In this document: positions 1,722 through 61,184 of the stretch, one piece after another
Numbering within the stretch: position 1 is the first letter of the stretch
Layout of the letters: every line of letters starts with the position of its first letter
DNA from: Cyanophora paradoxa CCMP329
Lineage: Eukaryota > Plantae > Glaucophyta
Reading direction: 5' to 3'
Length of the DNA stretch: 64,000 nt
Assembly: GCA_004431415.1 (NCBI GenBank)
Contig: QPMI01000165.1
Span: 186,001 to 250,000 of the forward strand
Translations under genes and position numbers: made by a program
Notes under the pieces: generated by a model
Database searches by the model: none
What the model was told of the DNA's origin: nothing
Seen by the model: the letters and a program-made list of their open reading frames with translations, nothing else

Positions 1722-1749
1722 GGCATATCCTCCCTCACTTTCTCACAGG

Positions 1750-3790: not shown

Positions 3791-3825
3791 TCATTGCTGC
3801 ATCATGCTGAGCGGCCTGCCGCCAG

Positions 3826-4068
3826 ATCGTGCTCGCGGAGTGCCTGCCTCGCAAGGCCACCGTCTGGGTCCACCCGGACCCCGAGGAGTCGAACTGGGGC
3901 TCCCGCGCGCGGTACTTCAGGTTCGTTCGGTCGCCTGCGCGCACCTGCGCGCCTGCCCTGGAATGTGCGGCCGCAGGTACGAGCAGAAGCTCGGGACCGC
4001 CGGCGACCTGGAGCAGCACGAGTACATCGACGAGGACAAGCACTTCGGGTCGAACTACCAGCTGGCCG
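3826..4068 (+). pseudogene. Hypothetical gene segment with a 56-nt intron (3921-3976)
   Basis: Removing GTTCGT...CCGCAG joins RYFR to YEQKL in the GC3-rich frame. Confidence 0.6.
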
Positions 4069-5830: not shown

Positions 5831-6103
5831 CTACGCAAACCGAATCACGACGAGCCCGTTGCTGCCATAGGCGTGGTTTGGACCGCCCACGCCCGCCGCT
5901 TCGACGTAGTCGCCGTCCTCCTGCATGGGGGGCACCCTGCGATTTCCGGTCACGGTGTAGCCCTGGGTCACCCCGGCGCCTCCGATAAAGCCCGAGCCGC
6001 CCGAGGCCCCCGACCAGCTCGAGCCGCCGCCGAAGTAGCCGCCGCCGCCGCCGGCCACCCAGCTGGTGTTCGGCCAGCTGCCGCCCAGGTAGGCGGAGCC
6101 CGC
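5831..6103 (-). pseudogene. Gly-rich domain protein, 3' segment
   Basis: GGGGGYFGGG...GGSGFI...GSNGLVVIRFA*; preceded by segment 17441-17635. Confidence 0.8.
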
Positions 6104-6229
6104 GTCAAGGAGGAGGAGCCCATTGGCTGCACGTACGAGCACGTGCACTGCCTCCTGAGGAGCGCGGCCAAACACGGGCTCCCCCTCCCCGCCGAGGTCA
6201 ACTACGTCGACGGCGCCTGGCTCGGTCCG

Positions 6230-6575
6230 GCCCCCTCCTGGTCTCCCTCCTCTTGCACTATGCGTTCTTTGTGTTCCTCCACCTCTTCCCCCTGTGGGCC
6301 CTGTTCAGGCGCTGGCCCGGCCGGCGGCCCTACCTCCTCCACGCCGCGATCACCCTGGCCGTAGTGGTCCAGCATGTGGCCCTCGACAACCGCTGCCTCT
6401 GGACCGAGCTCGAGACCCGGCTGAACGGGGGCCGGCCAGTCCCATTCGTCTACGAGCACCTCAAAAAGATCGGCCTCATCGGCAGGGACGTGACCAAGGG
6501 CCAGTTCTTCCGGTTCGGCCGCGGCCTCCTCCTCTTCCTCGTGACCGTCGATGTCGTCGCCATCGGACTCGCTGC
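6230..6575 (+). pseudogene. Small membrane protein fragment (DUF2784-like)
   Basis: Hydrophobic helices followed by RCLWTELETRL. Confidence 0.45.
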
Positions 6576-7022
6576 TCGTCGAGCGCCTCTTCCGGCCCCT
6601 GCTCCAGGCGGCGCTCGAGGACCCCGCCGTGCGGATGCAGATCGCCGCCGCAGTGGCCGATATCGTGCGGACTAGCCCCGAGGTCCGGGCCGCCGCCGCC
6701 GACGTCGTCCGCGCGGCGCTGGCGGGCCTGTCGTCGAGGTGAACCAGGCCGAGCGTGGGCCCGGCTCCCCTTCCCCTTGGCCTTGGTAGACCCGTCAGAT
6801 CGCCGACGCCCGGTCGCGCCTCGCGAACCGCACCACCACGCCCTCCAGGAGCACGCCGCCGGATGCGATGCAGCTCCTCCCGAGCGACATCAGGGACGAC
6901 TGGATCGCGTACCGCAACTCCTACCCGCCCGTACTTGGCCGGCCCGCGCATGTGCTGTTCAACACGATATAGGCGCCCCGTACCCCCCCCCTCCCAGACC
7001 GTCCGCGCGCGCCCGGGGCGAG

Positions 7023-7620
7023 ATGGAGACCGCCGCCGCCTCCTCCTCCCACGGCGCCGGCGTGGCGCTCTCCCCTTCGTCGTCATCCTCGTACGTGTCT
7101 GCGGCCGCCTCGCCGGCGACGCCGGCGTCGTCGGACTCGGACTCGCCCGGCCCGCTCGAGCGCCGCCGCCGCCGCCGCAGGGCGCGCGAGTCGTCGCCGA
7201 CGCTCCTCACACCGGCGCTCGCCAAGTGCGCGCGCACCCTGCGCTTCGGGGAGGCGGCGGCCGGTAGTGCTAGTACCGGCGCCGCCCTCCTCAACCTCAA
7301 CCTGCTGGACCTCCCCGACGAGCTCCTCGCGCACATCATGCGCTTCGTCTGCCACCACCCTGCGGGCACCCTGCGCGGCGCCCTGGGCCTGCGCCTCGTC
7401 TCGCCCCGGCTCTTTGGCGTCGCGTCGCGCGCCGGCTGCGTCCTCGGCCCGGGCCGCGCCCTCGCCGTGGACGTGTCCACGGTGGCCCAGGAGTACCTGC
7501 GGCGGGGCATGTGGGCCGCGCCGGCCGGGGTGGTCTCGCCCCACGAGCGCCTCCGCGCCCTCGTCGCGGCGATCTGCGCCGGCCGCGGCCGCGGGGAGCC
7601 GGTCGAGCTCTGCATCCGCA
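7023..7620 (+). pseudogene. F-box protein 5' segment; continues at 28117
   Basis: LLDLPDELLAHIMRFV; 9-bp overlap GCATCCGCA. Confidence 0.75.
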
Positions 7621-8495
7621 GCCCGACCATCGCCCGGTCCCCGCTCGCGGCCCGCGAGCTGGTACGAGACGCGCAGGCGGCGCAGGTCATGGGCGTGTTC
7701 GCCGCCGCCGGCCGCCCCACCGTGGTCCAGCAGGCGCTCCAGCCGGTCGCGGACCGCCTGCAGCAGGTGCGGGTGGAGCCTGGCCAGGTCGGAAGCGCTG
7801 GCCTCGCCCGGGATGCATGATTTCTTGACGCTCATCACGCGCTCCATGGTCAGGCGCTGCGTATGCGTACGTAAGAGAGGGCGGCGCGGGCGGCCGATCG
7901 GTGCGCGCAGGGCCGCACCTTTGCGCGGGCCTCCCAATCGCGGTCGGTCAGGCCGATCACCGTGCGCGCGAGCGCGGCGACCTCTTCCGGGATCGGGGGG
8001 CTCCCCGGCTCCATGATCGCATGCTCGCTCTCCTCGAGCTCGTGATGCAGCTGCAGGTCGATGATCGTCATCACGTGGGCGGCCATGGTCGGTCCGGGTC
8101 TGGTCGGGCGGGGGGTACACCCATGGCGCCCCGGATCGATCATGTCGTAAGGTTGCTTGCTTGCTTGCTTGCTGGCTTGCAATCATTGCACTGCCGCTGG
8201 CCGGCTGACGGCAGTGGCGCGCCTCAGGGACCGACTCTTCAAGTCGGTGGAGAAGGTTGGACGGTATGCATGCGTGTGCCTGTGCGCGCGCGGCGCGGCG
8301 CGGATCGCACGGCTGACCCGGGATGAGCCCGTACTCGGCGGCGGCCGCCGCCGGCAAAGCGCAAGCGGCCGGGCGGGAGTGCTCCGGACTATGGCCGCCA
8401 AGCGCAAGCGGCCGGGCGGGAGTGCTACTTCAGATTGAATATCAAAACCAATCGCGTCACCTGTATCTCCCACTATTTCCCAGCCCATATTAACC

Positions 8496-8798
8496 ATGAC
8501 CGCAACCGTCTTCATCGTCTCAAAGCTCTACTCCTACTCCTTGCCCCTTGGTGTCTACAAAACCTTCGCAGAGGCCCGCACCAGGGTAAAAGAGCTTGCA
8601 AAGAGCAGCGAGGACACTTTCATCGTCCTGTGTGCCATGGTGGGTGGCAGTGGGATCCGGGAGGTGGCAAGGAACGAGGTGCGGAAGGTTCGCGCGTGGT
8701 TGATGCACGGAGAGGACACAAAGGGCGAGACAGGCAGCGAGGATCCTGAGAACACTGAAGGCCCCGAGATCCGTGAGGAGACCCACGACGACGAGTAG
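8496..8798 (+). CDS. Small hypothetical protein
   Basis: Intact ORF after an AT-richer upstream region. Confidence 0.6.
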   Translation: MTATVFIVSKLYSYSLPLGVYKTFAEARTRVKELAKSSEDTFIVLCAMVGGSGIREVARNEVRKVRAWLMHGEDTKGETGSEDPENTEGPEIREETHDDE

Positions 8799-8839
8799 GC
8801 GGCCCGTGGGCGTCCTCTGTACATATATTGTAGCAGCCT

Positions 8840-9057
8840 CTACTCGCCTGCGCGCGGCCCCGGGGGGAGGCGCCGGAGGGAGAGGGCGTTTAAGACGGCC
8901 GCGTATAGGAGCCAGGTACCGTAGGGGATGGTGCAGAAGCGCAGGCGGTGGCCGGTGAGGCGGTCGATCTCGTAGAGGGTCCAGAGCATCGCCAGGATGA
9001 GCACGAGGGCGGGGCCGGGGCGCCGCGCGGCGAAGAAGGTCGGGGTCCAGGCGTAGT
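8840..9057 (-). pseudogene. tspO: TspO/MBR protein, 3' segment
   Basis: YAWTPTFF...ALVLILAML...IPYGTWLLYAAVLN. Confidence 0.85.
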
Positions 9058-9923
9058 GGGTAGGTCGTACGTGGGGATGATCTGGAACGGGCGCCCGGCC
9101 TTGAGCTCCTCCATGGCGCGCACGGCGAGGGGCACCTCCCATGGGTTCGGCCTCGGCGGCGGCGGCCGCAGGCCCCGCGCGGCCGCCGCGGGGTTCACCG
9201 CCCAGGCAAAGTGGCGGGGCGACCCTGGGGGAGAGCTCAGCTCCCCTAGCAGGACCATGTGCAGTAGTTGTTCTTCTGTCTGTTGAACGAACGCGCTTGA
9301 AAATATTTCCAGGGTGCCCCCTGCACAATCGGGCGACGGGCTAGGGCGCCTGAGGTCCCCCCCCAGTAGGCGCGGCGCTCCTGCACAACCGCCTCGTCCA
9401 TGCGGGACAGGGACGCCGATATCTCGTCACGCAGACGCTCCAGGGCCACGTACGTCGCCTTGCGCATCCTGTGCCTGGCAAACGCGTACGGTATGGCCGG
9501 CAGCAGCCAGCCCCGCCTCTCGTGCCCCACTACGCCGCCGCCCTTGCGGTACTCGTTGATGAGCTCCGCCGCCGCCCCTGCCGCCGCTGGAGGGGCCGCC
9601 GCTGCAGGGGCTGGCCCCGCCGCCGCCCCTGCCGCCGCTGTCGACCAGCAGCCCCCCGGCCCTGTACCCGAGGACGACTACAGCGCCTCGACGGCCCTCT
9701 TGATCCCCGACGGCAGCGCCCAGGCCCCGCGCCTCGCTGATCGCCCCGACCTCTCCAACCTCGGGGCCCGCGATGAGCTGGCCGGCGCCGCCCCGGCGCC
9801 CGACGTGATGCACGACGCCGCCGACGCGCTGCGCGCCGCGTTCCGGCCGCTGCCGGCGCCCCGTGAGGTGCGTGACGAGCCCGTCGGGTCGGTCCGCGAG
9901 CTCTCGCACCTGGCCCCGTCGTA

Positions 9924-10036
9924 CGACCCTGACCTCGGAGGACGCCGCCCGTGGCGACGAGGTCTTCTCTGTCACCGTCCGCTACCGCCCGGGGCCAGGC
10001 CAGGACGCCGCCTCACTTGCCCCGGCCGGCGACCTC
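9924..10036 (+). pseudogene. Segment 5 of the seven-piece gene
   Basis: Pointers CGACCCT (9924-9930) and GCGACCTC (10029-10036). Confidence 0.8.
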
Positions 10037-10675
10037 GGCGCGCCGGAGGGCGTGCTCGGCGGGGCGGAGGGCCTCGATCCGCCGCAGCCGGTCCCGGATC
10101 CCCTCGGGCCCCAGGGCCCGCAGCAGCTCGGGGACCTCGCGCAGGCTCGCGGTGAGCTCCGCCACCTCGAGGGCGAGCCTGTCAAACTCCGCCCTCACCT
10201 CGAACTCCTCGAGCAGGGCGAACTTCGACGGCAGCACGGGCTCGAGCAGGGCGAGGAGCTCGGGGTCCCGCCCCGTCAGTGCCCGCACCCTACCCATGAA
10301 CTCAAGGGCCCCGATGCGGCGCGCCTCCATCTCCTCCATGCTCCTGCACAGGTCCGCAACGTCGCCCTCGGGGAGCGTGGCCCGCGCCCTTGCCGCGAAC
10401 CGATCCATGCTCACTAGCTGCAGGCGGCCCAGCAGGTCCCCCACCGTGTCCGAGTCCGCCCGCTGATTCGCACCGGGGCTCGTGCCCCCTTTTCTACTAC
10501 CGCTGATACCTACACCACGGGCGCCAGTGGTGGCCCCCGCTGTCGTCGTCAGCGGGGCCGCCGCCGCTGGCGGCGCCCTGAGAGCCCCCCCTCCCCGTTC
10601 GGGGGCCGCGGTCGAGGAACGCCCACCATCCCCCTGCGCATGCCTTGTTGAGGCAGTACTGTTAACCGCGCTCAT
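10030..10675 (-). pseudogene. Helical protein 5' segment with a PAH-like stretch
   Basis: RVRALTGRDPELLALLEPVLP followed by coiled coil. Confidence 0.35.
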
Positions 10676-10741
10676 TGTGACCCACGCCCCCCCCCCTGCT
10701 CCCTGAATGCGAAATCCATTCTCCCATACAAAACGCGAGGA

Positions 10742-11008
10742 CTACACCAGGTACACCGTCGCACGGAGGGGCCCTGCCTGCACGCCCAGAGCCCGGCGCC
10801 CGTCCAAGGACAACGAGGAGAGGGACAGGAGCCCCGAGGCGCGGCCGCGCGCTGGGATCCGAGAGTACTCCTCCAGCACGCCGTAGCCGCTGTCGGCGCC
10901 CCGCTGCAGGGTCCCCGTCCTGCTCCAGGCGCCAAGGGCCCCCTCCCCGCTCGACGTGTCCCAGCAGAGGACCGCCCGGGGCGGCCGAAGCTGATGGCGT
11001 GCACCTCG
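10742..11008 (-). pseudogene. Segment 7 (3' end) of the seven-piece gene
   Basis: Pointer CGAGGTGCAC; ends RATVYLV-TAG; needs +1 nt near 10975. Confidence 0.75.
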
Positions 11009-11619
11009 CGCCGACCGACATCGGCCTCGCCGCCGAGGAGACGGGGCGCGTTTTCCTCGACTGCGCCGTCAAGAGTGCCTCGGGCGAGCTCGTCGTCCTG
11101 GAGCGCGGCTGGGCGCGCGGCCGCGACCGGTACCGCCTCTTCTGCACGCGGGTGCGGCTCTCCTGGGACGGGGGCGTCGGCGACGCCGATCTGCACTCGC
11201 GGGCACGCCCGACCCTCTCCGGCGAGGCCGTCGCGGTCGTGCCCCTCGCGGCCCCCGAGGGCCACGACCTGGTCGTCGTGGGGAGCCGCAACCGCGTCAT
11301 GGCCGAGTGCCGCGCCGGGACGGCGGCGTTCGCGAGCCTGCGGCCGGCCCCCGGCAGCCGCGGGGCCGTCGGGCGCCTCGCCAACTCGTGGAGCGAGGGG
11401 ACGTGCGCCGCGCTCGCCGACGGGACCCTCGTGCAGGCCATCGACGCGGGGGGCGCGACGATCCTGCGGGAGCTGGCTCGTGGGGACGGGAGCCTCCTCC
11501 TCTCCGAGACGGGCTTCGTCGTCAACCAGCCGCTCTCGGACGACGAGCTGGCGGTCGTACTCGGGGCGGACGGCAGGGTCGCGACGCTCGTCGCGCCGAA
11601 CCAGGAGACCGCGGTGGTC
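11005..11619 (+). pseudogene. Segment 3 of the seven-piece gene
   Basis: Pointers CTCGCGCC (11005-11012) and GGTC (11616-11619). Confidence 0.75.
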
Positions 11620-11960
11620 GTGGGACGGGCGGCGGGACGTAAGGTGGCGGTGCGGGCGGCGGGACGGGCGACGGCGCCTGAGGCGGGACGGGCACGTAAG
11701 GTGGCGGTGCGGGGGGGAGAGCCGCCTGCATTATACTGCCTGCGGCACATGGAAAATTCTAGCGCCCCTGGTACGGCGGCCCCGTCAACATGGCCGGCTC
11801 CTCTGTTCTCCTAGCCGCCGCGTACGCCGTGCTGGCGATCGCGGCGATCCTGGTCTGCGCCGGCCTGTACCTCGCGCTGGCGCTGAGCCCCCCGAGCTCC
11901 AGGCGGCGATGTAGTGTCTGTATTTGTAAGAACGAACAAAGACCGTTTTTCTTTCCTGCT

Positions 11961-12070
11961 CTACGCGCCAACGCGAATCACGACGAGGCCGTTGCCGCCA
12001 AATTTGTGGTGCGGGCCCCCCACGGCCACCCCGTCGATGTAGTCCTCGTCCCCCGTCTTGGGCAGAAGGT
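11961..12070 (-). pseudogene. Gly-rich protein paralogue, 3' end
   Basis: DEDYIDGVAVGGPHHKFGGNGLVVIRV, paralogous to 5831-5920. Confidence 0.75.
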
Positions 12071-13017
12071 GGTTGTGGTCGCGGCAGTAGTAGAGTCGGA
12101 ACTGGGACTTGGATATCCACTCGCGGGCCGTGGTCTTGTTTATGTCGCTGTATGCAACCTTTGGATGGTATCCTTGATACTGGGACACGATCTCCGCAAT
12201 GCCTTCAGCATCCGGCGTGCCCGTTGACCTGACATGAAAGGCAGGCACTCTCCAGGGGATCAAGAGACGCCGATCCGGCTGAGGCTCGCCGGCGCGGGCT
12301 GCAGGGGCGGTCTTCTTCTTGCCGCTGGGCGGTCCTCCATGTCGCGCTCTCTTCTTGGCCGCCATCCGCGGCTGTTGCGCGTCGTACCAGCTGCCGGCAC
12401 CGTCGTCGTCGTCGTCGTCGCCGTCGTCGGGCACAGTGGAGGAGGAGGAGAAGATCGTGAACCGCGGCTGCGGGGTCCGGAGAAGGGGCGGCGCCGGTGC
12501 CGGCACCGGGGTCGCCTGGTCAGCCTGGCAGCCGGTCAGTGTTGTTGCATGCGCGCGCAGTGCGGGTCCGCCGCCGGCGAACCTGTTGATTGCCGCCTCC
12601 CGGAAAGTTCTCATCCGCGGCGCCCCTTTCGACTTCACAGACGTCATTCCAAATCCCCGCTGACTCTGCAAGTTCGCCGTCTAACGGCTGCAGATTCAAC
12701 TCGTAGCCAGCGGTTCTCCAGGCGGCCAGCGGTTCTCCAGGCAGTCGGGATGGCAGCGAGGAGAATGCTTCTTGCAGCGGATCGTATGGTGGGTCTTGCA
12801 GCGGATCGAACGGTTCGAACCGCGCCAAATCGTCGCTCATTCGATCGCGCGAGCTCGCGCCCGTCGCCCGCCGCGGCCGGGCGACGCCGACGTGCGCGCG
12901 CGCGGCGCCCGATCCGCGCGGTCCGTCCGGTGGTCGGTCCACGACGAAGAAGAAGGGGGGGGGTACGTGTTTTTCGCCCCACGTGACTTTTTTCGTCCCA
13001 CGGGGTACGTCATCGTG

Positions 13018-13809
13018 ATGGCGGCGGCACCAGCTGCAGCTCCGGATCCGGATCTAAACCCCGCGACTGGAGTCCAGCGGCGATGGTTTGCAATCTTCTG
13101 GGCGCTCGAGGGCGCCGGCGACGTGCCGACGGCCTTCACCCTCCACAGGACGCAGCGCCAGCCAAACCCCCCCGCGGCGCCGGCGCCGGCGCCTTACCGG
13201 ATCCCCTTCAGCGCCGCCCAGCGGGACGAGCTGCAGCGCATCCGGGACGGGCCCGAGGGCATCCACCACATCAAGCTAGACCCCCGCGGCATCGTGGTCA
13301 ACGACATCATCTCCCGACGGAAGGACTCGGACGGGAGGGAGGTGTGGCACAACCGCACGTGCGGGCCCGGGAACGAAAGGTGCACTTTTCGCATCGGAAT
13401 CATCCCCTTCGACGAGGCCCAGCGGGGCCAGATCAGGCAGGCGGTTCGCGAGTTCTTCAATGAATCGAATCCGCCGCCGAAGGCGAGCGAGATCTACATG
13501 CTACCCTGGCACGGTACGCTTTTTCCGGTACGGGAGGGGTGCACGAGGGTTCGGTACGCGCAATCGGGGACGGAGGCGTGCGCCCCGAAGCCCTGGGTCA
13601 AGTTCGCTGGCCAGGGCTCGCACGCGCCGACCTGCTGGAGGGACGAAACGCGGCAGAGGGGCCTGCTCCAGATCCAGGCCAAGGGCAACCCCTCGGGCAC
13701 GGAGGCGTGCACGCGCTTCCCGCCGGCGTACTACGGAGACCGGTGGCCGGCGGCGCCGCCCCGCCGCGGCGGTTTCTACGACAACGCCTGGCTGGCCGGC
13801 GGCGGCTAG
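13018..13809 (+). CDS. Hypothetical protein, apparently intact
   Basis: Continuous GC3-rich ORF to TAG. Confidence 0.55.
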   Translation: MAAAPAAAPDPDLNPATGVQRRWFAIFWALEGAGDVPTAFTLHRTQRQPNPPAAPAPAPYRIPFSAAQRDELQRIRDGPEGIHHIKLDPRGIVVNDIISRRKDSDGREVWHNRTCGPGNERCTFRIGIIPFDEAQRGQIRQAVREFFNESNPPPKASEIYMLPWHGTLFPVREGCTRVRYAQSGTEACAPKPWVKFAGQGSHAPTCWRDETRQRGLLQIQAKGNPSGTEACTRFPPAYYGDRWPAAPPRRGGFYDNAWLAGGG

Positions 13810-13985
13810 CTAGCTGGCCGCAGGCTCCGCCGCCGCCCCCGCGACCGCCCGGCAGAAGAAGCGGAACTCGTCATCCGACATGTCGGCCTTCATGAGGTTG
13901 CACTGGGCGCAGACGAGCCGCACGTTGCCGGGCACGTAGCCCAGCGCTGGGTCGATCCTGTCCACGGACATGTTGTAGGCTGCGG
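13810..13985 (-). pseudogene. HNH-like endonuclease 3' segment
   Basis: SVDRIDPALGYVPGNVRLVCAQCNLMK. Confidence 0.75.
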
Positions 13986-14159
13986 CGGTGCCGTAGTCCT
14001 GCTCGTAGCCCCAGTTGGAGGAGGAGGCGCCGGCGCCGCCGTAGTTGTCCTGGCTGTAGTTGTAGTCCTGCAGCTGGGCACCGGTAGCCCGCATCGACGA
14101 CGTGCGGAAACCGGCCGTATCGGCCCTGCTCCACGCTCGTGGCTGCCCGTCCAACTGCA

Positions 14160-14679
14160 CGACGACCAGGTCCACCGCGGTCGCGGCCACGTAGGCCGGG
14201 CCGAGGAGGCCCGCGAGCGTGGCGTGGAAGATGCGCATGGCGGGCTTGGTAACACCCGCCTTGCCCATCCGCCAGTACGACAGGAACCAGGCGAAGATAC
14301 CAAAGGCGATCCAGGCGAACATCAAATTGACCTTGTTCTGGGCACCCCATGTCGCCATGTTGCCGAGCGGCGCGGCCATGGTGCCGATGACGCCGTCCTG
14401 CTTGAAGGCCGCGGCCGGCCGGGCGGCAACGACGGGGGGGCGGAGTGGCACGGCCACTCCGAACTGCTGCTGGGCCCGGCCGAGGCGCGGGGCCGCGCCG
14501 GCGATGGCCGCCGCAGAGGAGTGGCCATGGCCGCCGGCGGCGGCGGCGGCCCGCTGGGCGACCATGGCCTGCGCCTGCACCTGCGCCTGGTGCTGCTGCT
14601 GGCCGGGGCGGCCCGCGTTGAAGACCTCGCTGATGGGCGCGGCGCTGTCGACGGTGGAACCGGCAGTGGGGGATGCCAT
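14160..14679 (-). pseudogene. Membrane protein 5' segment
   Basis: FAWIAFGIFAWFLSYW...LAGLLGPAYV. Confidence 0.55.
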
Positions 14680-14748
14680 GGGGGTGCTGCGGGGCTGCTA
14701 TATATATCGAACTAGGATCAAAGAAAAAAACTTTGCCCAGGTCGAACG

Positions 14749-15130
14749 ATGTCGGCCGCAAGGTACACCGCCGGTCAGGAGGACGACGTGGCGCCTGCCG
14801 AGGGGGCGCTCGGCATGGCAGGCCCCTGCCGACAGGGCTCCGAGAGCAGCGGCACCAGCGACACCCCCACAGCGGCAAATTCGTTGCCGCTGTCGTCCGA
14901 CGGCACCTCGGCGTCCCAGGCGTCATTGGAGCGCACCCAATGGACGAGTGAACAGGAATCGCTCCTGGTCGGATGGGGGAGGGCGCTGGCCCGGCTGCGG
15001 GAGTACCACCTCTCAGCCAAGCGCTTCTACTGGGCCTGGGAGTACGCGATGACGGTGCCTAGCCTCCTCCTCTCCACGACAGTGACGGTGCTAATAGCCA
15101 TTCAAACCTTTTCTGGCAAAACAGACGACT
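14749..15130 (+). pseudogene. SLATT-like two-TM protein, 5' segment
   Basis: WTSEQESLLVGW...HLSAKRFY...TVPSLLLSTTV. Confidence 0.6.
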
Positions 15131-15356
15131 TGCTGCGTGCGATGCCCTGCTCCTGCCGCGGGACGTTCGATCCTGGGACGGGCGCCTGGGCCTTCCCCGG
15201 GGTCTCCACGCCTGTTCCAGGCGTGGTAGCGGTCGCCTCCTCGCACCGACGCCGCGGGCCGCACCTGCACACGCCCGCCACGGCCGCCGCCGTCTTCGTT
15301 GTGGCCGGAACCGCCGCCGTCGCCGCCGCCGCCCTCTGGCGGCCAGCAGCAACACC

Positions 15357-15648
15357 ATGGTCGCGCCGGCGGCCTCCTGGCGCCGGACGGCGGTGATGCG
15401 CTGGATCCACGACAGCGGCTTCTCCGTGAAGGACCAGAAGTCGGCGACGCACCTGCTCATGACCGGCGGCAAGATCCGCATCCCGCCCGAGCGCGAGGAC
15501 GAGTTCCTCGCGCGCTACGCGGCCGACGTGGCGCTCGGGCACGGCCAGCTCTTCTTCGTGGAGAAGCGCACGCCCGTCTTCCGCCTCTTCGCCGACCTGG
15601 ACTTCCTGGACGACCGGCCCTACGACCTGGCCACCGACGTGCGCCCGT
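15357..15648 (+). pseudogene. NCLDV A468R-like archaeo-eukaryotic primase, 5' segment
   Basis: THLLMTGGKIRIP...FFVEKRTPVFRLFADLDF. Confidence 0.8.
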
Positions 15649-16006
15649 TGAGGCGCCGCTGGCGGCGGGCGCCCTCCGTAGAGACCGACAGGAGCGCAAG
15701 GAGCGCCACCACAAGGTACGTCTGGCCGTAGGTGATCTGGCGAGTAGTAAGTAAGCGTGCGCGGGCCGTCCGCTCTCCACTCTTACCTCGAAGGACGAGC
15801 CCGCCGCGACCAGAATGGCCTGCACGATGACCCGCCCCACGAGCGGCTTGACCGCCAGCACCAGGGCGAGCTCCAGCGCACAGAAGAGGAAGTCCTCGCA
15901 ATCCATCCGGCTCGCACACACAAGACCACCCCTGTACCCCCCCCCCTACCGCGTCGGACAGGTGGTGCGATTTATAGCGGCCATACGGCAACCGCAACAA
16001 CACAGC

Positions 16007-17292
16007 ATGGAGCCGGCCGATCTCGTATCCATCCGAACGTGCATCGAGCGTTGCGCCCCAGCTGAGGGAATGCCAGCAGGACAGGACGCGGCTGCAGGAG
16101 CGAATCGCGGTCGTCGATCGGGAGCGGGATGTGCTCGCGGGCAGGGTTGCAGTACTGGAGGCTGATCTTGCGGTGCGCCAGGTGGAGGTTGGAAGACTTG
16201 GGGGGGAGCTGGCAGCGTGCCAGGGGGAGGCTGCAAGGCTTCGGGCTGCCCTTGAGCAATGCCGGGAGAATCTGCGTGTTCAGAACGACCGGGCCAACGA
16301 AGCTGAGCGCCGGAGGGCCGTGGCCGAACAGCAAGTGCAGGCCTTGCAGCAGCAAGTCCGAATGGCCGTCGCAGACAGGCTAGAGTTCGAGCGTCGGGCA
16401 GAGGAGGCCGTGCAGGCGCTGGGGGAGGCGCGCCTTGCAGTGGAAGCCGCACGGGCAGAGGCCAATGCCGAGCGGCAGCGCCGGGTGCCCGTCGAGCAGG
16501 AGCGCGACGACGCGCGCCGCCAGCTGGAGGAAGAGCGAGGGCGCCGGGCGCCCGTCGAGCGGGAGCGCGACGACGCGCGCCGGGAACGCGACGAGGCACG
16601 CCGCCGGCTGGAGGCTGGTGAGCTGGAACGGGATCGCGCCCGGGCACAGGTGGACGCTGCAGACAACGTGGCCATGTTCGATCTGTTGGAAGGGAGGCTG
16701 CGGGACCTTCTTGAAGATCAGGACCTCGCTCCCCAGGGAAATCGAGATCTCATCCGCCAGCTTCTTGGCGTTGTCGTCGACCAGGCCGCAGATTATAGGA
16801 CTCAGGCGGCGATGAATTCTTGGAGGGTACTTGCCGAGTTTTGGCTGGGCAGATTGAACGCGGTCATTCGTTTGGTCCCTGCCGACGACCCTCTTCGGGC
16901 CGAGGTGCCTGAACAAGACGGCCGCCGCGGCCGGGTCCGTTTCCTCATGGCAGTGGTCCGTGCTTACCTGCGTGATCGCCGCCAGCTGGACGCTGCAAAC
17001 TATGCAGCCATGCACGTCCATCTACAAGGGAGGCTGGATGCACTTTTAGCACTGCCCTTTGAGCCTGCAGTGATAGAGGAGCTCCGGCAGATTCGCCAAA
17101 CCGTCGAGGCTGACAATCTTCCTGCAACAATCACTGCCTGGATTCGGGTCGTCGGGATTTTGCAGAGGCAGGTAAACCTGGACGCAAATCAGTTTCTTCA
17201 GGCACTCCGCCGCCGCATAGAACCCGCCCTCAATGGCTTACGTAATGCACTTCCCGCAGACGACCCTCTCCGGGCCCTGCTCATGTTGCCCG
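16007..17292 (+). pseudogene. Coiled-coil protein 5' segment
   Basis: Heptad region plus PADDPLRA repeats; one extra C near 16056. Confidence 0.55.
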
Positions 17293-17440
17293 TGACGAGC
17301 GAGGTCACCGGGAAGGCCCAGCAGATGCCGTCCTCGCGGTTCGCGGCGTGGCGCGAGCGCTGGGAGAACGACATCCCCTACGTGCACGAGAAGATCCTCT
17401 CGGACGGGGCGCAGCGCTGGGAGGTGCGCATCGACGACCG

Positions 17441-17635
17441 GCCCGCCGTGCCGTACCCCCCGTGCGTTGCGCCGCCCGCGGTCTGCGTGCCCCCAAAAGC
17501 GCCGAGGTTCGATCTCGCCCCCTGCAGGCCGCCGCCGGCCCCTCCATTTGAACCGATGTAACCCCCGCCGCCGCCGCCGCCGGCTGTGATTAGATCGGCC
17601 ACGGGCGCTACACCGACCTTGAAGAGGCCCCCGAC
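17441..17635 (-). pseudogene. Gly-rich domain internal segment
   Basis: LITAGGGGGGG...GGTQTAGG...GYGTAG; pointer GCGGGC to 6103. Confidence 0.8.
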
Positions 17636-18785: not shown

Positions 18786-18825
18786 CGACTTGGCCGTCGA
18801 GGTGGAGGAGGGCCAGCGGGGGGAG

Positions 18826-21796: not shown

Positions 21797-23470
21797 TCGC
21801 CAACCAAGGTTCTCAAGGACCGAGTGGATCCGATCCCTGCCGAACGGCCGGATTCGAGCACCCCACCACGGGTTGTCGAGGATGTTGATCCAGTTGATCT
21901 TCCCAGCGGCCACTAGAGCGATGGCGAAAACCAGGCCCGGCAGCGGCACGTCCAATACCCTCGGGGGTAGCGCTTCGATGACCTCCTGCACCCGCATCGC
22001 TCGTCTGACGCTATAGAAAAATCGTGTGCGGTTGGTTGGCTGCGGGGTGCGTCACGTGCCGGCACCGGGCCGCGCCGTGAACTGCTGGCGGGGGGATTTG
22101 ACCATGAAACAAACCACGATCTCCCAGATGCCCGGCGGCCCGATGGGGGGGGAGTTGGACCCGAGCACGAGGGGGTTCAGGGGCCAGACCAGGTGCGGCA
22201 TTCGGAATCGCGCAATGTCGATGAACCGGCCGTAGGCCACGTCGAACCACGCCTGGTCACGGGGATCGGGGACCCCCTGTGAACCTCTTATTGGGTGCCC
22301 TGCGGGGTCCATGAGCGCCGCGCCTCGGAGGGGGCCGCAGCGGGCGCAGACGCGGCCGCAGCGGCAGGCGAGGCGCCCGCACCCGTTGCATGGGTCCCGC
22401 TCGGCCCTGGGGGCCTTCTTTGGGCGCAGGACGAGGCGCGGCCACCCGGCGAGGGTGGACCCGGCGGCGCGCCAGGCGAGGGCGGCCGGCTGGGTGCCGA
22501 CAAATAGCGCCGAGGCCTCCACAAGGGTGCAGAGGGTGGCACCACGGTCCAGGTCATCGACGCGAAGGGCGAGGAGTGGTCGCTGCGGGGTCGCCGCGGG
22601 GCGGAGGGCCTTGGCGGCGGCGCAGGAGGCCTGGTCGGCGAGGCCGAACAGGGCGATTGTCCGCAGAGGGTACCGACCTCGGCACGACCCTGTGCCGTCC
22701 CTGCCTGGGGCGCGACCGCATCAAGGCCTGGGCACCCCCGCCCGGCCCCGAGGCCCTCGAGCGGCCGGAGGCCCCCGTGCTGTTCAGGTGTGCGCCGCCG
22801 CCGCCGCCCCAGCGCCCCCCCCCCCCCCCCCCTCATGCGGGCGCGCCCCCTCAGGCGCATCCACCTGTTGAACGACTCCTGCCGCATCAACCAGTACGCC
22901 CCGGTCCTGCCGATGGTGTGTATATGTATGCGCGCCCGCCCGCCCGCCGCCCCCCGCCGCCCCCCGGACCGTGCTGGCCGCTGCAGGTCCTGGCGACCCT
23001 CCTGGACTTCACGGACGCCGCCGCGCCGCCCGTCCTGCAGCTGGAGGGGACGCCGACGGCGGGGGCCCTGCGCGAGATCGTGGAGGGCCTCCTCGGCATC
23101 CTGGGGTGCTCTTCGGCCCGGGCCCCGTCTACGTGATGTACCTGGGCAGGGACGAGGATGTGGTGGTGGTGGGCGACCGCACCCCGTGGGCGAACATGCG
23201 GGCCCGCCTGGGGCAGCCCAACCGGGACGGGGTGGTGCCCATTGTGCTGCAGTAGTAGTAATAGTCGCCTGTGTTCTCGATGAATAACATATCACACGCA
23301 GGGAAACCTAAACTCAGCCCCCCCTCAGTCACCCCCCTCCTCCATTGGGTCGACTAGTTCATGATCATCGTCGCCCACCGCCGCCGCCGCCGCCGCCGCC
23401 GCCTGCAGGATCGCGATGAGCCCCGGAGCGAGCTCGAGCAGCGGCGCCTCGCTGCCGCCGCTGCCGCCGC

Positions 23471-31554: not shown

Positions 31555-32030
31555 CATCCTCTCGGACCCCGCCCTGATGTACCTCCCCGCCGACCTGACC
31601 GCCGTCGGGCAGGTCTGCCGCGCCTGGCGCGCCTGGCCGGGGGCCCGGGAGGAGCTCGCGGCGGCCGCCCTGAACGCCGCGCTGGGGCTCGGGCCTGAGG
31701 ACCCCTGCCCCCTGGAGCCCTGGGCGCGGGCCGGCTACCCGGGCGGGCTCGAGGGGCCCTCCGGGACCTCGAGGGCCGCCCCGGCCAGCCGAGCGCCTCC
31801 CTCCTCCGCATCCGCCACCTCCTGTGGGAGGAGGGGGCAGCCTGCCCGGCGGCGGCGCCCTGCGCTACCCGATCCGGGCCGCGTCGGCGGCGGAGGCGAA
31901 CGCCGCCGTCGAGGCCGAGGTGGCGCGCTTCGTCGCGGCGGGGGACGCTGTCGAGTCCGGGCTGCTCACGGGCACCGGCGCCGGGACGGCCCTGGGCCTC
32001 GCCGCCGCGTGGCAGCTGACCACGCGCGGC
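31555..32030 (+). pseudogene. F-box protein segment
   Basis: DLTAVGQVCRAWR; two G-run frameshifts. Confidence 0.5.
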
Positions 32031-32202
32031 CCCGTCGGGCGCCCTATCGTCCGTTTCATGTACTACCCCGACCAGGAGGACGAGGTCTCCCTCGACGGGT
32101 CCCCGTCGGATCCGGAGTAGCGTAGGCGCATGTCATTGTTAATGCAGTCCAGCAGTGCGCGTACTGGTCGCCGCGCGTCCGGGCAGTCGTCGGATTTCTG
32201 CA
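32025..32202. repeat. 178-bp exact inverted duplicate of 48999-49176
   Basis: Direct reverse-complement identity. Confidence 0.95.
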
Positions 32203-32721
32203 GTCCCACTCTAGTGGAGGCCGCCGCCGCCATGGCCCTCAGCTCTGATGCCTGCCCTGCCCCGCCTGTGCATGTTCGCATGCTGCTGCTTCTATATAGG
32301 CTGAACTGCCTCCGCTTGTGAGAACATGATTCTAATGCACTCCACTGCACGCCGCCCGCCCCCCCCCCACCGCCCTCCACACCGCCCCACTCAGCCCACC
32401 CAGCCCCGCGGCCCTCCCCCCTACCCTCCCCTACCCCTCCCCCGGGCCCCTCCCCCCCTACCCGCCCAACCGCTATGAACCACTTTCACAGCTGGGAACC
32501 GGTTGTGCTTTCCGAAGGCATCTGCAGCCTTAAGAGACGACCGCCGAGTCTGCTGTGGGAGGAAGCATAGTAATTCACGATGGGGGCCGCGGTCTCCTGG
32601 AACAGGACCACGCCGTAGTGGTACGCCCAGTACGCGGGGTCCCCCGCTGAGTAGGGGTTAACGGGCCCGTCGCCTCCGCGGCCACCGCCGCCGCCGCCGC
32701 GGTCCAGCAGGCGCTGATAGC

Positions 32722-38618: not shown

Positions 38619-39259
38619 CTAAACTGGGTGCTCGTTGAAGCGGGGCGGCGTGCGGACTAGGAACACGGGCGGGTCCTGCCTGGCCCTCTTCCGCGGCCTC
38701 GGCGCCGCCTCCTCCCCCTCCGCGACGGCCGCCGCCGGCCGCAGGGCCGCCGCGCGGATCTCGTTGGTCGCCTCCCCCCACTTGTAGTAGACGCTGCCCC
38801 CGAAGCGGCGCGCCACGGCCCGCGTGCTCTCGTTGAAGAAATCCCTCAGCGATGCGACCTCGCCGGCCCAGCGCCGGAGCTCGGCGATCCAGAGGGGGAG
38901 CGCCTGCTTGGGGGGGCCCGCGATGCGCACGGCGAGCAGGTTGTTGAGCAGGTCGATGCCGCACGCCACGAGCATCTGCATGACCTGCACGCGGGCCCGC
39001 ACGCGCTCCCGCCTCCGCTCCCGCATCAGCACCAGGGACTTGAAGCGTTCCTCGGTGAGCTCCTTGGTGAGGTACTTGAGGCGGATGTCCTCGTTCGAGC
39101 GGGGGTTGTACGCCGCGACGTTGGCCGCCGCCCCCTCGATCTCCACGCGCTGGACGTGCACGACGAGGCGGTGCAGCTCCGTCACGGGGCGGACGGCCTC
39201 GTGGACGTGCGGCGGGCCCCCCGAGTCCACGATGTGGGCCACGATGTCCGCAAGGCGCG
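38619..39259 (-). pseudogene. NCLDV RING-IBR (RBR) E3 ligase, C-terminal segment
   Basis: LHRLVVH...NEDIRLKYLTKELTEERFK; abuts segment 56359-56608. Confidence 0.7.
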
Positions 39260-40990: not shown

Positions 40991-41036
40991 TGAGAGGGGG
41001 GGTCGGGTCGCGAGCGATGTTGCTCGATGCACGTCT

Positions 41037-41662
41037 GCGACCTCTGCGTCAGCGAGCCGGGCCCCATCGGCGAGCGGGCCGCCCTCCTCATCGGGACCCC
41101 GTCGCCGGCCGCGTCGCCCCCCGCGCCCCTCCTCATCCCCCTCGTCTACATGGAGCCGGCGGGGGCCGGCGCCGGGATGCCCGACGAGGACCCCGAGTTC
41201 ATCCGGCTCACGGTGCACGTCCTCGACGCCTCCCGCCCGCCGCTCGTGCGCGCCGTGCGCGCCGCCCGCTCGCCCCACAACTACGCCAGCAGCTTCGACC
41301 TGCGGGCGGCCGCCGTGCTCGCCTCGGGGGACGCCGTGCTCGCGGCCGGCCGCAGCGAGGACGACAAGCTCGTCGTGTGCACGTGCGACTGGAGGGGGCC
41401 GGGGGGGGAGGCGCGCTGGGACTTCCTCCGCATCAACGTCGACCTGCTGGAGGAGCCCGACTGGGCGGGCGGCGCGGGGGACTCGCCCTACGACGCCCCG
41501 CCCCGGTTCCACATCATGCCCCACGCCGCGGGGGCGCACGCCGTGGTGCGCGTCTCCTCCCCGCGCTGGGACCCCTGGGCGGCCTCCGAGGAGGGGGCGC
41601 CCTCGGCCGAGGTCCAGTACTTCCTCGTCCGCATCACGCCCGCCGGGCGGGTCGAGGTGCAC
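41037..41662 (+). pseudogene. Segment 6 of the seven-piece gene
   Basis: Pointers GCGACCTC (41037-41044) and CGAGGTGCAC (41653-41662). Confidence 0.8.
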
Positions 41663-42419
41663 ACGCACGCCGACCATCGCGCACGTGCACACGCAGCTGT
41701 TGCGTTGAGGCGCTGGAAAAAACGCGCCTACCCCCCCCCCTCCCCCGTTCAGGGTGACGTTTGGGCCGGGGGGGGGGTCCGTTTTGCCATTTGCAAAATC
41801 CAGTTTACACCCCAACCGAAACTCTATAGCTAAGGCGATACGCAGCCGGGGCTCTTCTTCCGCGGCCTGCCTCGCCGCCTTTTCGCCTTGTGCTCGATCT
41901 CCCCCCTCCCGGGCGAGTGGGCCCACTCCTGGCGCCTTTTGTGACTCTCCTGGTCGATCTCTTGCCGTGTACGGCGGGGCCGCTTCGGGGGCGTCGTCGC
42001 GGCCCGCCACACTTCAGGCAAGTGGGCGTCGTCGTCTCAGGGCCGCCGCCTGCAGCCGCCGGGTCCTCCCCGCCCCTTGCTCGCCGGATCGACTCGTCCA
42101 GCCGCCTACAGTCGCCGCAGATCACTTTCGAGATGTACGGCGACCCGCAGCGAGATGTCGGACATCCACAGCAGACTCGGCGGTCGTCTCTTAAGGCGCC
42201 CTGCGCACCTTGTGCATGCCGCAGAGGGCGCATGCTGGCATCGGCGCCATGTGTGCGTGTGCACACACACGGATTACCATATACCACAGAAATCCGCCAG
42301 AGCGGCTCAACCGCACAGGAGGGGGAGGGGGGGCGATTTGCGGCCCACTCCAGTTTAGACCCCTACCGAAGTTGTAGGTCGGCAAGGGTACCCCCCCCCC
42401 CCTACTCACCCTAGGGCCC

Positions 42420-52375: not shown

Positions 52376-52755
52376 CGGCGACCCGGCCCTCATCGACGAG
52401 ATCGCGCGCACGCACGGCAAAGCCTCGTTCTTCTCCGATGCCGTGGAGGAGATGCGCAACTCCGGCGCCGCCCCGCGGCCGTCCGCGGCGGCGGCGGCCG
52501 CTGCCGCCGCGGGCGGCGCCGATGCCGCCCCCATCCCCGCCGGCGGCGGCATCTGCATGCTCCCCAACACGCCTGCCGTCGCCCAGGCGGCCATACGCGT
52601 CTTCAAGCTCCGGGAGGAGACGGAGGCCGCCCGCGCCAGGCACGCGGAGGCCGACGCGCAGGCGGCCGAGGCCGTCCGGCAGCACGAGCTCGCGGAGGCG
52701 GCGGCGCACCGGGAGGCCGCCGAGGCGAATCGCCGGGGCAAAGAGGAGATTGCCC
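52370..52755 (+). pseudogene. Bro-family protein internal segment
   Basis: GGDPALIDEI motif followed by coiled coil. Confidence 0.5.
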
Positions 52756-53175
52756 GAGCTCCTCTTCGTGCGGGAGAGGGCGCTCCTCCCGGGGACGCAG
52801 CGGGCGCTGGAGGCGCAGCGCGAGTCGCTCGAGGAGCGGGCCCGGCTGAAGGAGGCCATCATCGAGTCGGTGCGGCTGGAGCAGGCGGCCCTCCGCACCG
52901 AGGCCCGGGCCGTCGGCCTGGCGACCACGTCCGAGGAATACAAGGGGCTCATCGCGCGGGCGCGGGATCTGATGGCCCAGGCCGACCAGGTGAAGAAGGA
53001 GGGGAACGACGCGATTGGCATCGTCGCAGCGGCTGGTGGCGGCGGGGTGCGCGGCATCATCGCCCAGGCGGCGGCGGTGGCGACCTCCTCGGCTGCCGCC
53101 CGCTTCCCATGCCCCGGGCAGGACTGCCGTGGGTTCATGGGCCGCCGCCTCCGCGGCGTGCGCAAGTGCGGGGCC
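52755..53175 (+). pseudogene. RBR E3 ligase, pre-IBR segment
   Basis: ELLFVRERALLPGTQ...FPCPGQDCRGFM...KCG. Confidence 0.75.
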
Positions 53176-54670: not shown

Positions 54671-55010
54671 ATGTCCGGTGGTTCGTTGACCCATCTCGCC
54701 GCCGTCGGCGCCCCCGATGCGTACCTTTTCGGTGCGCCGGCGGTCACCTTCTACAAGGGCGTGTACCAGCAGCACACCAACTTCGCCATGGAGTTCATGG
54801 AGACGACCTTCAACTCGGCCAACTACGGCCACAGCGTTACCGCCGAGATCATCCGCACCGGCGACCTCCTCTCGAGCATGTACCTCGTCCTGAAGATCCG
54901 CCCGCTCCTCAACGGAAGCAACACGGGCAGCGTCTTCTTCGTCGACAAGCTCGGGTACGCCATCATCAACAAGATCGAGCTCTCCATCGGTGGCACCCTC
55001 ATCGACACCA
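54671..55010 (+). pseudogene. MCP: NCLDV major capsid protein, N-terminal segment
   Basis: LAAVGAPDAYLFGAPAVTFYKGVYQQHTNFAME...RTGDLL...IELSIGGTLID. Confidence 0.95.
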
Positions 55011-55922
55011 TCCTGCCGGTGTTTGCAGCACCGAACACCACCGATGCGACGTCCAGCATCGTGCCGACCTGCTCGGCAGTCGCGCGGCCCGCGTCGAGCT
55101 CGCGCCGCAGCAGGGCCGGCCACGCTGCGGCCGCCGCCTCTTCCTCCTTGGCGGCGGCGCAACCGGTGAACCATGCAAAGGGAAGGCAGCTCGCGACGGC
55201 CTGCGCATGCGCTTGAAGTCGCCGATCATGCCGAGGAACTTGCGAGCCACGCGCACCGCCCCCTCGATGCTCTTGTGCGTGCCGAGGTTCGCCTTGCCAC
55301 ACTCGATGTTGTCGAAGCGCACCAGGTAGCGGCACGGGCCCCCGGGCTTCCTCGCGGGCACGCGGTACACGTAGGGCGGCAGGTTGCGGCCGGCGGCCGG
55401 CGCGGGGAGCTGCAGCGGGGAGGCAGCGGCCTCCTCCTCGTCCTCCTCCTCCTCCTCGTACTCCTCGGTGCCTTCGCAACAGCGGCGCGAGAGCTCACGG
55501 GCGCGGTGCGCGCGGCGCTCCCGGTCAACGCACGCTGGCACCGCAACGACCGGCTGGCCTTCTACGACATCTGCATCCTGCGCACCGTTGCGCCGACGGC
55601 GCAATCGCTCCTTGCCGGCCTCCGGGGCGGTCCGGCCGGCGCGCCGCTCGTCGAGGCGCTCTCTCGCATTTTGGCGGGAAACCGACGGACCGTCGAGAAC
55701 CTCGCGACCGTCCTCGCCAAGGGCTTCATGTCCTCGTACAAGATGAGGATGGCGGCAGGCGAGCGGCCGGAGGCGCGGGCGGGCCGCCTGCTGCTCGACC
55801 TGGCGGCCCACATGACTTCCCACGCCGGCAGCGACGCCCAGGTGCGTGCCGCGGCGTGTCGCATGATGCAAGGCTGAAAACTGCCCGCGCGCAGGTGCGC
55901 CCCGCGGCCGCCGGATAGCAAC

Positions 55923-56359
55923 ATGGCGTGTCACATGATGCGCGCGCCGCAGATCATCATCGCCGAGGGCGGGGTTGGGCGCGCCGCGCGCGTGCTCGGC
56001 ATGCACATGGCGATCCTCGGGCTGGTCGACCCCGCAGACCCCCTCGTCGACTTTGACATGTGGGTGGCGCTCCGAGGCGACCTCCGCCCGCCGCCGGCCG
56101 CTTCGGATCTGGCGGCGGCGCTGGCGGCGGCGGCCCGGGGCCCGCGGGGCGGATGCCGCGGCCCGCCCCGCCCTCGCACGTGCCCGTCGTCGGGCAGCCC
56201 GCGGGACCGCCGCCACCGCCGCCCCTCCCATCGTGGCCCGGCGACCTCGTCGCCGCCCTGCTGGTCGGCCTCGTGCCGGCGTGGGGCGCCGCCCCGAGCG
56301 GCCTCCCCGACCCCGACCAGGAGGCGCGGGCCCTGCTGGCGGCGCGGGGGCTGCGGCTG
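55923..56359 (+). pseudogene. Segment 1 (5' end) of the seven-piece gene
   Basis: ATG at 55923 (or 56153); ends ARGLRL; pointer CGGCTG at 56354-56359. Confidence 0.6.
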
Positions 56360-56608
56360 CGGGAAGCCGCCGCACGGGACGTCCCCCCGCGCCCGGTCCA
56401 GGCCGCCGTTGCGCCGGTACCAGTCGTAGTAGTGGGGGTTGTGCACGACGCCCTGCTCGACCCTCCCCGTCTTCCACGAGAAGGCCGTGTGGCAGGCCGT
56501 GCACCACATCTGGTCGCAGCCGCTGATCTTGAAGATGAGGGCGCGGCACGAGGGGCAGGACTTGCAGTCCCGCAGCATGGTGGAGACGGAGGCGGCGACG
56601 TCCGGGTC
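56359..56608 (-). pseudogene. RBR E3 ligase, RING2 segment
   Basis: KSCPSCRALIFKISGCDQMWCTACHTAFSW...HNPHYY...DVPCGGFP. Confidence 0.9.
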
Positions 56609-56794
56609 ATCCCGAAGCGCCCAATCTATGTCTACTCCTTCGCCCTCGACCCCGAGGACTGGCGCCCGACGGGGACCCTCAACTTCAGCCGCATCAACGA
56701 GGCGCTGCTCAAGTTCAACATGCCCGTGGGCGACAACGGAGAGCCCGCCACGCCTGCCGGCGAGATCTTCATCTTCGCCCGCTACGTCAACATC
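56605..56794 (+). pseudogene. MCP: NCLDV major capsid protein, near-C-terminal segment
   Basis: IYVYSFALDPEDWRPTGTLNFSRI. Confidence 0.92.
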
Positions 56795-60088: not shown

Positions 60089-60571
60089 ATGGCCGGGCCC
60101 CCGGCGCCCCCCGTGCCCCGCATCCTCTTCCAGACGTGGAAGACGCGCGAGGTCCCCGAGCGTTGGCGCGATGCGCAGGCCTCGGTCGTTCACGCACACC
60201 CCCACTGGGAGTACCGCCTGCTCACCGATGAGGACAACGACCGGCTGGTGGCCGAGCACTTCCCCGAGTTCCTGGCCCGCTTCCGCGGCTTCCGGTACCC
60301 GATCCAGCGCGCCGACGCGATCCGGTACGTTGTACTGTACGTCTTTGGGGGCGTCTACCTCGACCTCGACTACGTCTGCGTGCGCCCGCTCGACGGCGTC
60401 CTCGAGTCCATGCCGGCGGACCGCTCGGTCGGGCTCCTGGCCAGCGCAAACCCCGGGGCCGTCACCACCAACTCCATGATCGTCGCCCGCCCGGGCTCCC
60501 CCTTCTTCCTCGAGTGCATCCGCCGCATGCAGCGCCCGCGGCCCTTCTGGGCGTGCACGCGCCACGTTGAG
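60089..60571 (+). pseudogene. GT32 DXD glycosyltransferase, 5' segment
   Basis: PRILFQTWK...QRADAIRY...GGVYLDLD. Confidence 0.9.
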
Positions 60572-60698
60572 GGCGAGGTTCAGGAGGAACAGGAGCACGA
60601 CGGGGTCGTGGCGGGCGGGGCGGCCGGCCGGTGCCCGTGCCGCGGCGGCGGCGAGGGCCAGGGCGATCAGCACGTAGAGGATCCCCCACGCGATGGGG
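60566..60698 (-). pseudogene. tspO: TspO/MBR protein, middle segment
   Basis: PIAWGILYVLI...LFLLNLALN. Confidence 0.8.
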
Positions 60699-61184
60699 TC
60701 TTTGACGGCGGCGACGGGAGGCTGCTGGAGGCCCTCGAGGTGGCCACGACGCCGCGCCTCGCCAGCCCCTGGTACCTCCTCTGCCTGCCGGGCTCCTCGC
60801 CCCCCTCGCTCCTCGCCCACGACGGCGCAGGGGGCGTGGCGATCGCCCCCATCGAGGTCGTCTGGGCGCTCGCCGGCGCCGGCCGGGCCAGCATGGAGCC
60901 AGTGCTCGTGGCCAGCATGGAGTCCTACGCCACGGGCAAGGAGCTGCTCACCGTCCAGTCATTCGCCAACTACTTCTCGCGCGCCTACGCCAGCCCGTCG
61001 AACCGCTACGACCCGCGCGGCGACCGGGAGGCGGCGGCCGCCAAGGGGCTCGGGCGCCTGATGATGCGCGCGACGCTGGACGAGTTCGCGGGCGACGGCA
61101 CCGCCGTCCTCGAGTTCGCGTCGGTGGCGGCGGCCGCCGTGCCGCACCTGGAGGCGGCCTACGGGCTCGTCCCCGCTTTCAGGG

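Follow-up and report, generated by a model that had tools for sequence, protein, structure and literature searches.

This locus raises the question of how gene pieces came to lie directly beside unrelated pieces, and by which process they were joined. The initial annotation proposed that neighbouring segments share 4 bp at 11005-11008, 6 bp at 39254-39259 and 1 bp at 56359, and that staggered cuts with fill-in were followed by microhomology-mediated joining with little resection. The key example of this proposal is wrong, yet it points to a real and unusual object. The window (the whole stretch of 64,000 nucleotides) is DNA of a giant virus (Nucleocytoviricota), the genes of which are cut into sub-kilobase pieces, shuffled in order, often placed on opposite strands and located far apart.

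Pfam searches of the window detected the NCLDV major capsid protein as two separate pieces, both above the cut-off, as well as truncated PCNA, YqaJ, lipase and glycosyltransferases. TspO and an AEP primase are also present in two pieces each. The capsid and primase pieces are:

54671..55013, plus strand: major capsid protein, N-terminal piece (PF16903, E 1.7e-16)
56609..56794, plus strand: major capsid protein, late piece (PF04451, E 3.4e-9), adjoining the second IBR piece (below) without spacer
15447..15617, plus strand: AEP primase piece, profile 1-58 (PF23162, below the curated cut-off)
39426-39602, plus strand: second AEP primase piece, profile 118-178 (PF23162, below the curated cut-off)

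The gap of about 60 residues between the primase pieces could be resection loss. Profile matches to A22-type (resolvase) pieces were below the cut-off, and PolB and the packaging ATPase had no match in the 64-kb window, which is part of the element. The window has a GC content of 70% and no match to tRNA or Rfam. Its exact DNA patterns had no match in viral or metagenome contigs, and no close relative was obtained from scans with capsid, PCNA or P0003 (a protein described below), or when the 11008-11622 piece or PCNA served as query in protein searches. For two pieces, atlas matches gave weak leads only.

No host flank is found within the 64,000 nt, and no host genes were recognised among the pieces in the Pfam searches. 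Protein P0007 is 100% identical to the window and bears a EukProt gene-model name; therefore, the window DNA likely lies within the assembly of a eukaryote. The sequencing runs containing words of the window carry 93-124 Mb of contigs. The shuffled viral DNA likely sits inside the chromosome of a single-celled eukaryote.

The window also encodes an unbroken kinase frame of 1012 codons, 33894-36932 (-), which is its longest piece, and a DDE_3 transposase frame, 687-1721 (-; E 5.7e-10), which adjoins a tandem repeat of 87 nt located at 149-653. Fibre-like proteins carrying repeats of 17 residues are encoded at 32722-33370 (+) and 47505-48546 (-), the latter with a Peptidase_S74 chaperone domain (E 6.7e-17). 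A TspO/MBR gene is carried by the virus (pieces 8867-9062 and 60560-60717). (TA)n tracts at 40593-40616 and 59689-59708, directly upstream of viral frames, are possibly promoter elements. At 37583-38604, the public gene model P0007 is a chimera with a truncated YqaJ start spliced to unrelated frames.

The gene at 11005-11008 was resolved by a search of 1.84 billion proteins, which gave four matches, including an intact relative of 600 aa, P0003. This protein aligns in order with 31586-31827, 41033-41674 and 10993-11622, all on the plus strand. The features of the gene are:

31586..31970, plus strand: F-box-like/propeller-like gene, piece 1 (P0003 22-103; two frame changes)
41030..41674, plus strand: the same gene, piece 2 (39% identity to P0003 151-357, E 4e-34; alignment from 41033)
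10993..11622, plus strand: the same gene, piece 3 (41% identity to P0003 357-560, E 7e-33)
10991..10997: true join, head-to-head (P0003 alignment starting at 10993, and codons; bridged by a single contig in X1, X7 and X15)
10745..10990, minus strand: unrelated coding piece that terminates with a stop and is the new neighbour across the join (codon model only; without homologue)
10999..11008: forms, with 41653-41662, a 10-bp inverted repeat within the gene, and does not represent a duplicated end

Residue 357 of P0003 is both the end of piece 41033-41674 and the start of piece 10993-11622, and these old neighbours (41674/10993) have 0-2 nt in common, according to which of the codons is taken as the original one. 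A further stretch of piece 1 corresponds to P0003 about 109-150 (score 59, reached by 0 of 1000 shuffles). The homology at the first join of this gene stops near 31970, followed by 54 nt (31971-32024) without assigned origin, which may be filler. The two segments named in the initial annotation thus do belong to one gene, but not in opposite orientation, as P0003 places both on the plus strand. The claimed junction is misplaced by about ten bases: the join is at about 10991-10997, and there is no join at 11005-11008. The initial annotation left its partner matches unnamed, and the matches assessed here are those ending at its coordinates; the 10-nt match probably behind this claim is the inverted repeat. 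The 10-mer at 10999-11008 lies within the coding piece and matches 41653-41662 in reverse complement; a third copy is found at 54328 (0.63 copies expected). A continuation from 41662 to 11008 with a local inversion, needing two frameshifts, was refuted by the P0003 alignment.

Three further observations concern this gene. Its break falls between the arms of the 10-bp inverted repeat (41653-41662 / 10999-11008), which has a null of 0.5% per site and is seen at one of five pairs. An 11-nt direct repeat straddles the 41674 join (41657-41695) and is possibly a templated insert. The database protein P0002 ends at 41686 without a stop codon, which hints at a contig end there.

The other two claimed overlaps involve an IBR gene. 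A profile built from 136 full-length viral IBR proteins matches three places in the window, on two strands:

52741..53172, plus strand: IBR/RING-type viral gene, piece 1 (HMM 75-175, iE 6e-7)
56359..56608, minus strand: IBR gene, piece 2 (HMM 205-290, iE 3.6e-48)
38623..39259, minus strand: IBR gene, piece 3 (HMM 299-433, iE 1.9e-17), with 3 nt in frame common with piece 2

The edge at 39259 fits the start of IBR piece 3, which has 3 nt in frame in common with piece 2 at its 56359 end. The 6-bp overlap is not demonstrated: the 11-mer that defines the edge at 39254 has rival copies at two places, 55096-55106 and 12851-12861 (0.8 expected), the first of which lies inside an unbroken coding frame. 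Similarly, 56359 fits as an edge of the IBR gene, but its 1-bp overlap depends on a partner edge defined by an 11-mer that also occurs at 51446 and 61413, and chance alone gives one shared base in 50% of flush joins. A gap of about 24 residues between IBR pieces could be resection loss rather than a piece elsewhere.

Further joins and old neighbours could be anchored with the following pieces:

60560..60717, minus strand: TspO piece, profile 35-83, adjoining the glycosyltransferase piece 60113-60565 (+) without spacer
8867..9062, minus strand: TspO piece, profile 82-141, with 2 nt common with TspO piece 60560-60717
23105..23250, plus strand: piece with the old neighbour 22335-22055 (-), about 1 nt common (read by eye against the intact paralogue 62386-63150 (-))

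In total, five old-neighbour pairs are anchored by a homologue, a profile or a paralogue, with the in-frame register chosen by eye. The shared length is 3 nt for IBR pieces 2 and 3, 2 nt for TspO, 1 nt for 23250/22335 and 0-2 nt for each of the two P0003-like joins, and no lost codon is seen in any of the five. Adding up these overlaps of 0-3 nt gives 6-10 nt, where flush cuts would yield 4.1 (P 0.26 to 0.03). At two new joins, 56608|56609 and 60565|60566, the pieces on either side are both identified by homology; these joins lack a spacer and permit 0-2 and 0-5 shared nt, respectively. The statements of the initial annotation that spacer DNA and IES-like spacers are lacking, and that ends were joined with little loss, are in agreement with these joins and pairs, with the 54 nt at 31971-32024 as a possible exception. 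Adapter words were not found in the window, nor was an adapter or restriction signature. Concerning hairpins at break sites, a 10-bp stem is present at one of the five anchored pairs (null 0.5% per site), and no stem above 6 bp was found at the others. A hand count biased towards testable genes placed the partners of 10 out of about 31 anchored open ends inside the window, from which the whole element would be roughly 200 kb, a few times the length of the window.

Long exact overlaps are found at a minority of ends:

32025..32202: 178-nt exact overlap, inverted, with 48999-49176
9566..9616: 51-nt exact overlap, inverted, with 44251-44301, inside a short tandem repeat (fitting contig break 9595|9611 in three runs)
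32527..32558: 32-nt exact overlap, inverted, with 42166-42197
12079..12149: inferred 71-nt repeat starting at a join (contig break 12108|12120 in three runs, k=31 arithmetic and a paralogue edge)

The long overlaps are 100% identical, and the terminal position of the 178-, 51- and 32-nt overlaps in both copies was read from coding boundaries. The contig break 9595|9611 predicts a repeat at 9566-9640, which agrees with the content of the window. The 12079-12149 repeat starts where the paralogue match ends; no second copy is present in the window, and its partner would lie outside. The duplication relative to the old neighbour, as described in the initial annotation, is real for this minority of ends (178, 51 and 32 nt, and probably 71 nt). 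The three long exact overlaps amount to 261 nt of 64,000, a copy gain below 0.5% of the window, whereas 3,400-6,800 nt would be expected from independent draws of a genome of 300-600 kb. The pieces were drawn once: almost all sequence is single copy and contig depth is flat. Positions 50493-50577 harbour a perfect 37-bp inverted repeat with an 11-nt loop, which is either a fold-back join or a natural hairpin.

Regarding the window as a whole, a self-trained codon model predicted 107 coding segments with a median of 254 nt. In a second codon-model run, 46 of 76 coding segments had open 3' ends, compared with 11 of 54 in eight intact control loci, a contrast inflated by control loci of at most 50% GC, three of which look like duplicates. 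Of 45 boundaries between two coding segments, 27 involve a change of strand (14 of one kind and 13 of the other). Many clustered breakpoints with random order and orientation are thus present in the window. In-frame exact matches between 76 open ends and 72 open starts were fewer than in the null, whatever the length and window. Within +/-10 nt there were 152 matches versus 260 at 7 or more nt, 8 versus 15.3 +/- 4.1 at 10 or more and 1 versus 2.4 at 12 or more, the null being a shift of 30-75 nt inward, which biases it upward. As matches of 7-12 nt show no excess, matches so short cannot define partners. Blind pairing of ends by shared words was dropped as chance-dominated, which leaves 10026/56238 (12 nt), 7749/43662 (15 nt), 26465/9141 (10 nt) and 5501/4926 (5 nt) as unproven candidates. 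An 11-nt match, 27135/37596, is probably due to chance, as the YqaJ frame begins with a start of its own at 37583 and has relatives of similar length.

Sampled 31-mers of 6001-16000 were present at 0.99-1.00 in 20 of the 24 runs listed, filed under 20 studies and all flagged as a possible source of this DNA. In three of four runs, single contigs cover 600-5281, 5337-9595, 9611-12108 and 12120-18276 of 1-20000 without difference. No branches at joins were found in these three runs over 1-20000, in contigs that drop rare forms. The fourth run, from 2012, contains short pieces only; one of them, 4767-4977, is unchanged across the strand switch near 4922-4950 and extends 27-55 nt beyond it. The shuffle therefore exists in the DNA itself, and the joins in 1-20000 are present in read-derived contigs. 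This read-level support covers 1-20000; 39259, 56359 and the 178- and 32-nt overlaps lie beyond. Frameshifts, for example near 3973 and 9927, are confirmed by the contigs. Single bases at 18440, 19658, 19789, 19827 and 19851 are missing from the window relative to read contigs and are assembly errors; therefore, frame changes beyond 20000 may not be real. Viral contigs have a depth of 52-108 (1-20000), and many unrelated contigs of the same runs touching the stretch reach as much as roughly double, which weakly hints that one of two homologues carries the element. Among the runs listed, no RNA runs contain words of the window.

We consider it probable that a process blind to sequence shattered a single viral genome, the pieces of which were joined by non-homologous end joining into the host chromosome, given the single-copy content, the mixed orientations, the lack of a motif, the near-flush ends and the little loss. 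The pieces mostly measure a few hundred bases. Most breaks would be flush or nearly so, and joined in a blunt manner with little resection. At a minority of breaks, nicks on opposite strands 30-180 nt apart may have left overhangs that were filled in, giving the long overlaps. Shattering and religation would have taken place largely in one event, and the inserted element would be inert and decay by frameshifts. For the mechanism, only five pairs and two joins could be anchored, each with the help of a distant homologue or a paralogue; the single event, the repair pathway and the timing relative to integration are inferred. More speculatively, and with a small probability, this could be a protist defence, in which a host nuclease shreds the incoming viral genome and the pieces are stitched and stored almost without loss in the chromosome. 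If true, an inactivated, sequence-complete archive could seed silencing against re-infection, and chimeric reading frames would be created in one step.

Stepwise scrambling after integration, in which small inversions and transpositions accumulated in great number over a long period while the viral insert was silent and unpaired, is unlikely. The contig-confirmed frameshifts indicate some age, and some old neighbours are no more than 1 kb apart. Nonetheless, the long overlaps are 100% identical, no codon was lost at five pairs, host genes were not recognised among the pieces, and partners are 17-51 kb apart.

Replicative template switching on the viral DNA (MMBIR or breakage-replication/fusion), with a mosaic that was copied rather than cut and pasted, has a low probability. 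The long overlaps, the perfect 37-bp fold-back at 50493-50577 and the 11-nt local repeat beside the 41674 join are compatible with it, and 'adjacent overlapping breakpoints' are described in the available part of PMC12807874. However, extra copies make up less than 0.5% of the window, the ends at the anchored pairs are near-flush, and a local repeat is present at only one of 17 joins (null 1.5% per join).

Staggered cuts with fill-in, joined through microhomology as a rule, as proposed in the initial annotation, are similarly improbable. The three or four long overlaps favour this model, staggered breaks with fill-in being a plausible source of them; the five short overlaps may sum to 10 nt versus 4.1 expected (P 0.03 at best), and 60565|60566 allows up to 5 shared nt. 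As a rule the model is not supported, since the short overlaps are near the flush expectation and overlaps vary (0-3, 32, 51, 71 and 178 nt) without a fixed stagger. No cut-site motif was found: no 4-mer was enriched at 11 breakpoints (the best at 4 of 11, with at least 4 in 1910 of 2000 of the null), and GATC and CATG occur at 0 of 11. Microhomology-mediated joining is likewise not supported as the rule. Each of the three quoted cases either fails or does not exceed chance, end matches of 7-12 nt show no enrichment, and at the testable joins 0-2 and 0-5 nt can be shared, where the threshold for such joining, taken from 10.1101/379644, is 5 nt or more. Its hallmark, deletion at broken ends, was not observed, with no lost codon seen at 5 of 5 anchored pairs.

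A laboratory or assembly artefact, such as amplification chimeras, ligation concatemers or mis-joined contigs, is very unlikely. The fold-back at 50493-50577, the five single-base indels between window and contigs at 18440-19851 and the fact that the runs containing the words may be the source of this DNA would fit an artefact, but the words occur in 20 runs under 20 studies, contigs are without branch at joins, the 2012 run is unchanged at 4767-4977 across a strand switch, and there is no adapter or restriction signature. Programmed ciliate-like scrambling, with overlaps as pointers for later unscrambling, is extremely improbable: little sequence is lost and some neighbours share ends, but a pointer repeat at each consecutive pair is absent (0-3 nt at five pairs, at chance level and without enrichment), frameshifts are present, and contigs of three runs, in which rare forms would drop out, have no collinear branch.

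In ciliate scrambled genes, pieces lie out of order with shared ends (pointers), IESs are located between segments and an unscrambled somatic copy exists. The window is similar in having gene pieces out of order with shared ends, and differs in that there are no IESs, no pointer at most pairs and no unscrambled copy seen.

Biolistic lambda arrays in rice and maize, according to the available part of 10.1101/379644, have a mean piece of 410 bp, with 25% blunt and 50% 1-4-nt joins. Similar to the window, these shattered arrays consist of foreign linear DNA in sub-kilobase pieces, in all orientations and with mostly blunt or 1-4-nt joins. In contrast, rice lambda-4 has 37 copies, whereas one copy of natural viral DNA is present here, and insertions are given for 21% of lambda joins. 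Chromothripsis, as described in the accessible sections of PMC13390643 and PMC12807874, likewise yields many randomly ordered and oriented pieces at close to single copy, with occasional overlapping breakpoints; overlaps of 10 or more bp are given for under 5% of insertions (PMC12807874). There the substrate is a host chromosome and here a viral genome, pieces here are sub-kilobase, and a single event is a conditional reading here. The 32-71-nt overlaps fit staggered-break fill-in in mammalian cells, where overhangs of 43-50 nt are filled in before Ku-dependent NHEJ and give tandem duplication (PMC8355091, in the part available). However, one break is rejoined to itself there and ends have new partners here, and 178 nt exceeds those overhangs.

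A literature search, with subscription journals largely outside its reach, found no report of a shattered endogenous giant virus. Similar to giant endogenous viral elements, the window contains eroded Nucleocytoviricota genes in a eukaryote gene set. For such elements, the available portions of the reports on Euglena (PMC12455990), Acanthamoeba (PMC12210455) and methylated GEVEs (10.1101/2025.04.15.648976) describe transposon erosion, duplication, truncation and chimeric regions, and not the gene-level shuffle of a nearly lossless single copy seen here. Gene models here are chimeras, as in P0007, where the YqaJ nuclease start is joined to unrelated frames, and marker-gene searches will undercount such elements. 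The element records how a non-model eukaryote repairs hundreds of breaks. Since its reciprocal ends can be counted, it also opens the entry of giant-virus DNA into host genomes to testing. Descriptions of endogenous giant viruses usually present them either as intact and latent or as subject to slow erosion; reshuffling of a single copy at sub-gene scale with almost no loss would represent a third fate, immediate inactivation by shattering and religation.
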